From positions 1-39,277 of the IMG/VR virus record IMGVR_UViG_3300020045_016121: a stretch of DNA of 39,277 nt, one strand, 5' to 3'. A program made the position numbers and the translations under genes. Numbering within the stretch: position 1 is the stretch's first letter; every line of letters starts with the position of its first letter. The stretch comes from a virus (lineage: Duplodnaviria; Caudoviricetes). Positions 10,067 to 11,370 of this stretch are shown in pieces. The notes under the pieces were generated by a model. That model saw only the letters and a list, made by a program, of their open reading frames with translations. It made no database searches and had not been told where the DNA came from.

Positions 10067-10360
10067 GTGGTATTTATTGAAAGAAATTCAGAAACTACTA
10101 ATCGTTACAAAAATTTTTACTCTAAGTGTTCTGAATGCAAACATAATTTTAAGTCAAAATGTACAAGGTCTAAGTATTGCTCAAAACAATGCAAAAGTAG
10201 AGTTGAAAGCAGAAAAAGAGAAAGAAAGTTTCATGAAAGAATTTGCTTACTGTGTAAGAAAACATTTAAAACAAGATCAGATACAAAAAGTAAATGCTGT
10301 TCTCATAGATGCGGTTTAATCTATTTCTTCAGTAAGATTAAAGGGGATAAATCCCCTTAA
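10067..10360 (+). CDS. Cys-rich zinc-finger repeat protein
   Basis: Two CxxC...F...(Y/C)CSxxC repeats. Confidence 0.65.
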   Translation: MVFIERNSETTNRYKNFYSKCSECKHNFKSKCTRSKYCSKQCKSRVESRKRERKFHERICLLCKKTFKTRSDTKSKCCSHRCGLIYFFSKIKGDKSP

Positions 10361-11370
10361 GTTATTTTCCAATCCCATTGTGCCACAGTTCTAGCTATGA
10401 TTGCATCTCTTTGATCATTTGTTATTTTTCCACTTTCAACTTCTGGCTTTAATTCTGCCCAGACTTGATATTCAACTTGTGTCTTGAAACTATTCATAAT
10501 ATCTTTGGTGTTTTTCTTAACAGCATCTAATCCATGAGCCTGAATGCTGTCATCACCTGCTGTTATCACTTCTTTGTAAACTTCTTTGGCTTTTTCAATT
10601 ATGTCTTTGCAATACTGAGTGTTTATTATCAAATCATTTTTGCAAAATGTTCCATTTTTGTAAGGAGATTCAATATGATCATCATCTCCAACTCCTAAAG
10701 ATGCAATATATTCTTCAATAGTATCTTTATCATAGGTTTGTCCATCCGGAGCAAGCATTGGAATAGCACAAATGTCTTGGGATATAGGACAGATAAAATC
10801 TTCAAATTCTTTTCGTCCATTTATAAAATTTTTGAATATAGGATAAACTTTGTTAATGATGGCATCGGCTCTCCATTGAGTAAAATGGTCAGATATAGAT
10901 ATTTGAACTCTAATCTTTTTGTTTATACGATTTTTAAGTAATACTCCTCCTAATGCCATACCACCAAGAACTCCTAGTGTAGTACCAGGAGCACCACCAA
11001 TGGGTCCAGCAACCCATCCTATTGATCCAATTCCACCTAGTATTACAGTGCAGATGGTCATGATTTTAGCATTCTTCAGTTTGTCGTGTTTGAGAACTTC
11101 GATCGTAGTGGTCTTTTTTACTAATTTAGCTTGATTAGCATGATCATTTTTATATGCCCTTACTCTTTGTCTATTTGCATAACCGCAATAAAGTCTAGCA
11201 GTTTTTTCTGCATCTCCTGATAGCTTGATTGAATCAAAAGGGATCAAAGTTTTTGGAATAATAACATCATAAAATTCAGGAAGCATTTGATGGTCTTTTT
11301 TCTTAGGAACTTCCTTTTCCGAAGAATGATGAGAGTATGAAGATATTGATACTGATCTTGGTGATGACAT
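10357..11370 (-). CDS. U-box domain protein (eukaryotic-type E3 ubiquitin ligase) with a hydrophobic hairpin; candidate secreted effector
   Basis: EDFICPISQDICAIPMLAPDGQTYDKDTIEEYI...ESPYKNGTF..NDLIIN fits the U-box consensus; ~43-aa Gly-rich hydrophobic segment; Ser-rich N-terminus. Confidence 0.8.
   Translation of the reverse strand: MSSPRSVSISSYSHHSSEKEVPKKKDHQMLPEFYDVIIPKTLIPFDSIKLSGDAEKTARLYCGYANRQRVRAYKNDHANQAKLVKKTTTIEVLKHDKLKNAKIMTICTVILGGIGSIGWVAGPIGGAPGTTLGVLGGMALGGVLLKNRINKKIRVQISISDHFTQWRADAIINKVYPIFKNFINGRKEFEDFICPISQDICAIPMLAPDGQTYDKDTIEEYIASLGVGDDDHIESPYKNGTFCKNDLIINTQYCKDIIEKAKEVYKEVITAGDDSIQAHGLDAVKKNTKDIMNSFKTQVEYQVWAELKPEVESGKITNDQRDAIIARTVAQWDWKIT

Follow-up and report, generated by a model that had tools for sequence, protein, structure and literature searches.

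Why would a tailed bacteriophage carry a gene for a predicted ubiquitin ligase of the eukaryotic U-box type, and in whose cell would its product act? The question is raised by the IMG/VR virus record IMGVR_UViG_3300020045_016121 (Duplodnaviria; Caudoviricetes), whose 39,277 nucleotides were analysed as a whole and are called here the window. On its minus strand, an open reading frame (ORF) encodes a 337-aa protein in which an uncharged, glycine-rich hairpin precedes a U-box. The original prediction, made from the letters alone, had taken this protein for a ligase that the phage supplies to an intracellular bacterium for use against the surrounding eukaryotic cell. We find that the U-box fold is real and that the gene belongs, with a partner gene, to an accessory cassette or “moron” that moves as one piece between phages with unrelated backbones. 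Moreover, the domain belongs to an old family of chlamydiae and was not captured recently from a eukaryote.

The U-box protein and its hairpin

The features of the protein are given below in window coordinates; pLDDT stands for the predicted local distance difference test and dN/dS for the ratio of nonsynonymous to synonymous substitution rates.

10357..11370, minus strand: hairpin and U-box protein (P0001), 337 aa, supported by the ORF, Pfam, predicted fold, PDB profile matches and dN/dS
10621..10803, minus strand: U-box (aa 190-250), in which a short acidic stretch is inserted ahead of P236, supported by Pfam, by PDB profile matches to LubX, plant PUBs and CHIP, and by pLDDT
10936..11064, minus strand: uncharged Gly-rich helical hairpin of 43 aa (aa 103-145), whose turn is Gly-Pro and whose flanks are basic, supported by composition, AlphaFold helices and conserved Gly
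11287..11370, minus strand: Ser-rich N-terminus (aa 1-28), low-confidence or disordered (pLDDT 45-52), candidate type III secretion signal
10360..10620, minus strand: long helix (aa 251-313) and short helix (aa 318-332) of the AlphaFold model, making up the C-terminal part (aa 251-337), candidate substrate or oligomer module

The ORF starts with ATG after TAGGTAAAT, in which TAG is the stop of an upstream 175-aa ORF and AGGT a Shine-Dalgarno-like core. The protein is under purifying selection, with a whole-gene dN/dS of 0.08-0.15 against 5 homologs, the set used for all ratios below. Its relatives were gathered in two profiles; A1 holds 12 close homologs, all from phages, and found 350 representatives (E<=0.001), and of the 150 that were listed most are about 300-350 aa long and share the layout, while A2 holds 131 rows, namely these 12 and 119 of the 150 listed representatives. 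AlphaFold, run on the A2 alignment, gave a model with a mean pLDDT of 80.

A U-box had been placed at about 10600-10806, and this call held. In the Pfam comparison that the prediction had suggested, PF04564 matches residues 190-230 with 29.2 bits (cut-off 21.4; E 1.1e-6), and the motif residues F192-C194-P195-I196-S197...P204...G210-x-T212-Y213...I218...P236...L247..N250 are encoded at 10803-10621, inside that range. The same family is matched at E<=0.001 by 98/131 members, and the segment 191-250 is predicted at pLDDT 91-96. Against the PDB, A1 matches LubX at E 1.8e-6, with CHIP and plant U-boxes matching as well, and A2 finds in LubX its best solved relative (E 7e-20). The top Foldseek rows are LubX U-box 2 and CHIP (probability 1.0, E 0.02-0.03, none at E<=0.001); for residues 183-270, a wider structural alignment returned domains of the RING/U-box kind with Z 6-7.5 and nothing with Z>=8, among them the CHIP U-box with Z 7.0 and a root-mean-square deviation of 2.4 Å over 73 aligned residues. 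In a viral structure library, the top named rows are giant-virus U-box proteins, none at E<=0.001. The fold is RING-like without the zinc ligand set, as the only cysteines are C194, C201 and C243 and there are no CxxC pairs. By profile and by fold, the protein is thus a member of the U-box family, and its U-box evolves slowly (dN/dS 0.03-0.13, one pair being saturated).

To judge from its sequence, the U-box is likely to recruit a eukaryotic E2 for ubiquitin transfer. From U-box/E2 structures, we take I196, Y221 and P236 to be the E2-facing positions (loop-1 Ile, helix aromatic and loop-2 Pro); the first is Ile or Leu in 115/131 members, the second W, Y or H in 115/131, and the Pro is kept in 110/131.

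The hairpin lies N-terminal to the U-box, where a Gly-rich bilobed hydrophobic stretch of about 43 aa had been described. Residues 103-145 contain no D, E, K or R at all and 30% Gly, with a mean Kyte-Doolittle value of 1.52, and their two lobes, split at G122-P123, reach 19-residue-window peaks of about 1.65-1.9 and about 1.15. Predicted helices span residues 97-121 and 123-149, and the flanks, KHDKLKNAK and KNRINKKIR, are basic on both sides, so that the N-terminal part and the U-box would share one cytosolic face. G115, G137 and G141 are conserved in at least 90% of the 131 members, dN/dS is 0.02-0.16, and the longest uncharged run is at least 40 residues in 74/131. Among 80 members with a long uncharged stretch, the upstream flank is net positive in 54 and the downstream flank in 57.

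Chlamydial Inc proteins are described as having a bilobed domain of 40-60 aa, two helices with a charge-free Pro/Gly loop, and charged flanks (PMC3048545), and the 43-aa length, two predicted helices, Gly-Pro turn and basic flanks found here agree with this description. No Inc Pfam family was matched by any of the 131 members. The protein is therefore a candidate Inc that may be called “Inc-like” by topology and context, not by homology to a known Inc; of that label in the original prediction, the length, loop and flanks bear out, and the weak second lobe, the glycine zipper (see below) and the missing Inc family match do not.

The Ser-rich start that had been noted is plain to see. Residues 2-21 hold 9 Ser (45%), the highest share among the 53 window genes (the next reaching 20%) and one attained by 0/131 chlamydial chromosomal ORFs. 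Residues 1-28 evolve at a dN/dS of 0.23-0.69, well above the ratio in the U-box. Across the family, the N-terminal share of Ser, Thr, Pro and Asn is 0.33 (129 members) vs 0.25 in the 131 chlamydial chromosomal ORFs (p 1.2e-6, with rows that are not independent). This variable, fast-evolving leader behaves like a putative type III signal and is a candidate for one. For the C-terminal helices, structural alignment gave no specific fold match, and the role suggested in the list above is conjectural.

The cassette, its family and its probable host

The carrier and the surroundings of the gene are as follows.

1..39277, no strand: complete podovirus-like double-stranded DNA phage, with TerL (15023-16291), portal (17214-19355), major capsid (22716-23696), RecT (4745-5521) and a ParB-like gene (21514-22281)
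10339..11913, minus strand: mobile cassette of two genes (moron), on the other strand from the early genes around it, its nucleotide identity ending at the cassette edges
11377..11904, minus strand: partner ORF of 175 aa with one hydrophobic segment, directly upstream of the U-box gene and likely co-translated with it; no known family
10341..10358, no strand: terminator-like inverted repeat where the ends of the cassette and of an HNH-like ORF converge; a weak call, being the single such site in 9900-12400, with 0.6 expected by chance
11985..12137, minus strand: ORF of the ribbon-helix-helix type (Arc/ParG-like), on the same strand, lying upstream of the conserved cassette and not part of it, by profile match and homology limits

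That the gene is phage-borne is confirmed by its context, a single complete contig with a 121-bp terminal repeat on which a terminase, a P22-like portal, the major head protein, RecT, an exonuclease and a replication initiator were recognised. The partner and the U-box gene are adjacent in all 8 loci that retain upstream DNA (L001-L004, L213-L215 and L217, L002 and L003 being near-copies), and the partner's stop overlaps the ribosome-binding site of the U-box gene. Nucleotide identity of 76-82% extends over about 1.55 kb, from about 10340 to 11913, and ends there in 5/6 loci; the capsids of the cassette-bearing phages L001 and L004 are only 36% and 29% identical to that of the window. Furthermore, a family member is present in 2/50 terminase relatives (the longest of 80) and in 0/33 near-complete ones. 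This absence, together with sharply bounded homology across divergent capsids, identifies the cassette as an accessory moron exchanged as a unit. The original prediction was right about the U-box and its phage setting and probably about an intracellular host; it missed the partner gene and the mobility of the cassette, and it overstated the novelty, as discussed below.

The partner has 22 homologs, of which 9 share their longest-contig size with a U-box homolog, distant ones included, and none of the 22 has a Pfam family. It is likely a co-exported membrane partner, a chaperone or a substrate. Promoter-like sites in the cassette region are at chance level (15 vs 13.7 expected). In a distant pair (P0193/P0027), nearly the same stretch closes the partner and opens the U-box protein, a trace of gene-junction duplication. 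Sister phages carry distant family members (L043, with a canonical U-box at Pfam E 1.5e-15, L044 and L064) or hairpin-only ORFs (L047 and L059), and several Inc-like hairpin ORFs in a row, their starts rich in Ser/Thr, lie beside the terminase or portal at L059:5108-7274, L047:11652-12369 and L043:6083-6451. A different RING/U-box ORF, Ser-rich at its N-terminus but lacking a hairpin, occurs at L051:13557-14195 (PF13445 above cut-off).

A family of the same architecture is found on chlamydial chromosomes. A1 matches 25/300 Chlamydiota genomes (best 3e-17), and A2 matches 48/300 at E<=1e-11, with up to 4 matches per genome; roughly half of these are nearly full-length, and the others cover the U-box only. 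At this threshold, A2 matched 0/301 Pseudomonadota genomes; its matches in 219/301 of them at E<=0.001 were rejected as family members, the 150 rows listed being confined to the glycine zipper except for two U-box-only rows in G427. These counts cover Chlamydiota for both profiles and Pseudomonadota for A2. A pattern scan of GTDB with A1 gave 30 candidate stretches and 0 confirmed close relatives. Five contexts (G102, G172, G063, G219 and G046) are chlamydial chromosome, and the neighbours of chromosomal members include translocator-like, SctJ-like and ATP/ADP-translocase-like genes, recognised by eye. A tree was built from 28 rows of known context, with 8 long chromosomal rows left out and long branches remaining; monophyly of its 10 phage-borne rows was rejected (approximately unbiased test, p-AU 0.0015), which points to more than one exchange between phage and chlamydial chromosome.

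The host of the phage is very probably a chlamydia, and likely an environmental one, obligately intracellular and equipped with a type III system, because the hairpin and U-box family is chromosomal in Chlamydiota and because a phage relative shares an IS3 element with a Parachlamydiaceae chromosome. Among 22 GTDB terminase loci, 7 are at least 61% identical to the window terminase, and the best (77%) lies in a Parachlamydiaceae bin. This last element (L150, G001:C25) is a 15.9-kb circle with neither portal nor capsid. It carries 229 bp of IS3 that recur, at 99-100% identity, where a chromosomal contig of the same bin ends, and this is the strongest host link found. Terminase matches occur in 9/401 Chlamydiota genomes, two of them being syntenic whole phages (G152 and G399). 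In G231, an integrated TerS-TerL-ejection-like remnant lies beside rpoBC, and its large protein is homologous to the ejection-like protein of G399 (E 4e-40). In addition, the outer-membrane-barrel cargo gene of the sister phage L056 matches 6/90 Chlamydiota vs 0/89 Pseudomonadota genomes. Of the intracellular bacterial host originally proposed, the chromosomal family, its type III neighbours and the shared IS3 speak in favour, the host itself being one that we still infer.

Some observations on these elements are added for completeness. The L150 circle has its terminase fused to a tail-region gene and carries the IS3 and a HicAB-like pair, and it could be a satellite or a decaying element. The G231 remnant (L136-L137, G231:C1 about 2.157-2.174 Mb) comprises an integrase, a DnaB-like protein, TerS, TerL and the ejection-like protein, with no capsid found, and may be a phage satellite. 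The terminase tree was set aside as host evidence, as it does not resolve the 7 chlamydial-bin terminases (about 40%) as a sister group of the window terminase family.

Proposed action and competing explanations

We propose that the cassette would be expressed in a chlamydia carrying the phage in a plasmid-like or lysogenic state, that is, as lysogenic conversion. The Ser-rich leader would direct export by the chlamydial type III system, and the hairpin would insert in the inclusion membrane with the U-box facing the eukaryotic cytosol. There, the U-box would recruit a host E2 and ubiquitinate nearby proteins, perhaps held by the C-terminal helices. For the whole chain, we see the chances for and against as balanced. 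A temperate or plasmid-like state is plausible, since ParB-, Cro- and excisionase-like genes are present in the window and since, among relatives, an integrase is found in 1/4 virus records tested and ParA occurs.

Several findings weigh against this chain, and the other explanations draw on some of them. Neither an integrase nor ParA was found among the window proteins, and the partner was not found in the 250 or 200 Chlamydiota genomes searched. In the tree, the window protein belongs to a clade that is made up of 7 phage-borne rows and has full support; among the rows of known context, no chromosomal one falls in it. Moreover, A2 may include proteins from the searched genomes, which would bias its counts toward Chlamydiota. 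Many U-boxes, though not all, have an allosteric linchpin Arg at the third place past the loop-2 Pro; the window protein has N239 there, and Arg is found at that place in 11/110 members and one place earlier (+2 from the Pro) in 71/110. The profile alignment with PDB entries shows Arg at the linchpin place in LubX U-box 1 and Gln in plant PUB12. Concerning the hairpin, its first lobe is clearly transmembrane-like and its second marginal (unweighted Hessa sum +4.5 for the second helix vs +0.85), and the whole forms a GxxxG glycine zipper that alone matches many unrelated proteobacterial proteins. A bilobed domain is, besides, no guarantee of inclusion localisation (PMC3048545), and some environmental chlamydiae form no inclusion (PMC4791399). 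This last point would also suit the same exported chlamydial ligase if its hairpin targeted a host organelle (endoplasmic reticulum, mitochondrion or lipid droplet) after release into the cytosol; the weak second helix and the Gly/Pro turn fit a shallow monotopic hairpin, and Simkania SneRING is membrane-associated at the endoplasmic reticulum and mitochondria (PMC12591485). We regard this as unlikely, as the hairpin agrees in length, in its loop and in its basic flanks with what is described for Incs. It seems rather unlikely, too, that the U-box binds E2 weakly or without catalysis, or that it serves as a metaeffector aimed at its own 175-aa partner and not at a host protein, as a timing device in the manner of LubX, which degrades SidH (PMC12591485). 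The missing Arg, the constant adjacency of the partner and the 9/22 homologs with equal longest-contig sizes would accord with it; yet PUB12 likewise has no Arg at that place, and chromosomal members occur without a detectable partner, so the ligase would work without one.

The doubt concerning the host is of another kind. Of the 7 close GTDB terminase loci, 6 are labelled non-chlamydial (2 Alphaproteobacteria, 2 Bacteroidota and 2 archaea), one of them being a stand-alone 39-kb contig; the best solved relative is from Legionella; and our Chlamydiota and Pseudomonadota samples were not aimed at Legionellales, Dependentiae, Rickettsiales or Amoebophilus-like groups. Another intracellular bacterium from such groups, exporting the protein by type IV or some other system, is nonetheless a doubtful candidate. 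The shared IS3, the absence of full-length family matches from the Pseudomonadota at the stricter threshold, and a variable end that is the N-terminus, as in type III signals, all stand against it. The archaeal labels make the bin labels unreliable, and we read the six as mis-binning, a reading short of proof. A lytic role would also fit the missing integrase. The protein could be freed at bacterial lysis and ubiquitinate the vacuole, or perforate it through its glycine zipper, letting virions leave the eukaryotic cell, much as a “twofold cell challenge” was proposed for phage WO (PMC5062602). However, the absence from 33/33 near-complete relatives indicates that the gene is not needed for exit, the cassette is transcribed against its flanking genes and the family is mostly chromosomal, which makes such a role improbable. 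Finally, bacterial E1-E2-Ubl anti-phage systems exist (known to us from titles only), and an accessory phage gene might serve as a decoy against such ubiquitin-like conjugation inside the bacterium. Against this stand a multicopy chromosomal family in chlamydiae, a eukaryotic-type U-box surface and a secretion-like N-terminus, and we consider it highly improbable.

Known systems, the carrier phage and meaning

The novelty of the three-way system of phage, bacterium and eukaryote in the original prediction was overstated, as NleG (PMC3530523) and phage WO (PMC5062602) are precedents. NleG proteins of enterohaemorrhagic E. coli are likewise U-box-type E3s on lambdoid prophages and are exported by the type III system of their host (PMC3530523); they differ in lacking a membrane hairpin and in belonging to an extracellular pathogen. 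No NleG entry or family was among our Pfam, PDB-profile, Foldseek and structural-aligner matches, which were eukaryotic-type U-boxes, and the window protein may be considered an NleG analog, not shown to be a member. The Wolbachia phage WO resembles the case in its obligate-intracellular host and in its eukaryote-directed, ubiquitin-related domains OTU, Ulp1 and PRANC (PMC5062602). It is, however, a temperate phage with a large module of peptidases, whereas here a 1.6-kb two-gene moron encodes an E3 and the host is likely chlamydial.

The Legionella effectors LubX/LegU2 and GobX share the eukaryotic-type U-box and its use by an amoeba parasite. LubX differs in having two U-boxes and in being a type IV substrate and metaeffector (PMC12591485); neither LubX nor GobX has a hairpin, their similarity to the window protein is limited to the U-box, and neither is described as phage-borne in the available parts of the sources. 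Chlamydial Incs share, besides the bilobed hairpin, a variable N-terminus and helical cytosolic parts (PMC3048545). The window protein differs from them by its U-box, its Gly-zipper-like hairpin, its less hydrophobic second helix and the lack of an Inc Pfam match. E3-type domains are also known from environmental chlamydiae in Neochlamydia NEX1b (PMC4209131) and Simkania SneRING, the latter active with UbcH5b (PMC12591485). NEX1b combines a U-box with leucine-rich repeats (PMC4209131) and SneRING a zinc RING with an alpha/beta domain (PMC12591485), both lack the layout of hairpin, U-box and helix, and these sources do not call either of them phage-borne. NEX1b was the sole RING/U-box protein found in a 2014 survey (PMC4209131), and SneRING is accompanied by three further RING-like ORFs (PMC12591485).

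Described chlamydiaphages are small single-stranded DNA Microviridae (PMC8936141; PMC4589997), tiny viruses without such cargo; they would share the host phylum with the window phage and differ from it in viral family. Tailed-phage genes have been reported only as a module on Parachlamydiaceae/Criblamydia plasmids (PMC7846284, PMC4791399), and the accessible part of a bioRxiv survey (10.1101/2023.03.17.533158) mentions phages only with CRISPR. No description of the hairpin and U-box family or of free tailed chlamydial phages was found in the literature searched, which mostly excluded subscription papers and supplementary prophage tables. What is new here is the Inc-like anchor, the partner and a tailed, probably chlamydial phage as carrier; the concept has precedent. 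A related terminase is found in 233 IMG/VR stretches. In INPHARED, the best terminase is 36.6% identical, with no cultured relative, and in PLSDB neither the U-box protein nor the major capsid has a match and the terminase reaches only 33-35%. The ESM Atlas yielded nothing beyond leads of low score (0.75 for P0001 and 0.85 for the partner), which were set aside. A look-up of sequencing runs listed one DNA run, with a share of 0.09, and no RNA run.

Several other features of the phage and its relatives deserve mention. Beside the cassette and away from the tail genes, a collagen-repeat and BclA_C-like protein is encoded at 12247-12975 (plus strand); homologs stand at other places in L047 and L215, and it is possibly a second moron (surface adhesin). 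A Sigma70 region 4 protein lies between terminase and portal (16394-17164, plus strand) in only 6/80 related loci, and three tandem paralogous tail-fibre-like genes of about 228 aa each occupy 1357-3436 (plus strand). Two paralogous small ORFs with transmembrane and coiled-coil segments (13441-13647 and 35539-35727, minus strand) recur, sometimes repeated, in L004, L169 and L230. The Pfam matches above cut-off to E1_FCCH (“E1 FCCH”) at 23698-24831 and 27827-31138 (plus strand) were rejected as a ubiquitin system and are read as virion or tail beta-sandwich domains. Genes for Ro60/TROVE, RtcB and RNA ligase occur in sister phages (L052:14442-15791; L001:8564-9775; L004:1295-2251), which suggests RNA-repair counter-defence. 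At about 14.3-16.0 kb of L043 and L226, a LAGLIDADG-like ORF interrupts the major capsid gene, probably as part of a group I intron, and L027:4082-4573, also in a sister phage, weakly matches the C-terminal domain of chlamydial plasmid Pgp3 (E 4e-4, below cut-off).

Perhaps the 233 IMG/VR terminase matches represent a large, undescribed family of tailed phages of about 40 kb that infect environmental chlamydiae and shuttle type III effector cassettes, including an Inc-ubiquitin ligase and its partner, between lineages, so that lysogenic conversion would reshape the coat of ubiquitin on inclusions within protist hosts. We offer this picture tentatively and place it somewhat below an even chance. 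The chlamydial niche is built by type III effectors, the Incs among them. The hairpin and U-box proteins would form a widespread unnamed effector family, matched by at least 16% of the sampled Chlamydiota genomes, and the window protein and its partner are directly testable as to ligase activity, choice of E2, the membrane targeted and what the partner does. If the picture is true, a tailed phage shuttling an E3 would be a route for effector turnover among environmental chlamydiae, and it would offer a transducing vector for the genetically intractable phylum Chlamydiota.

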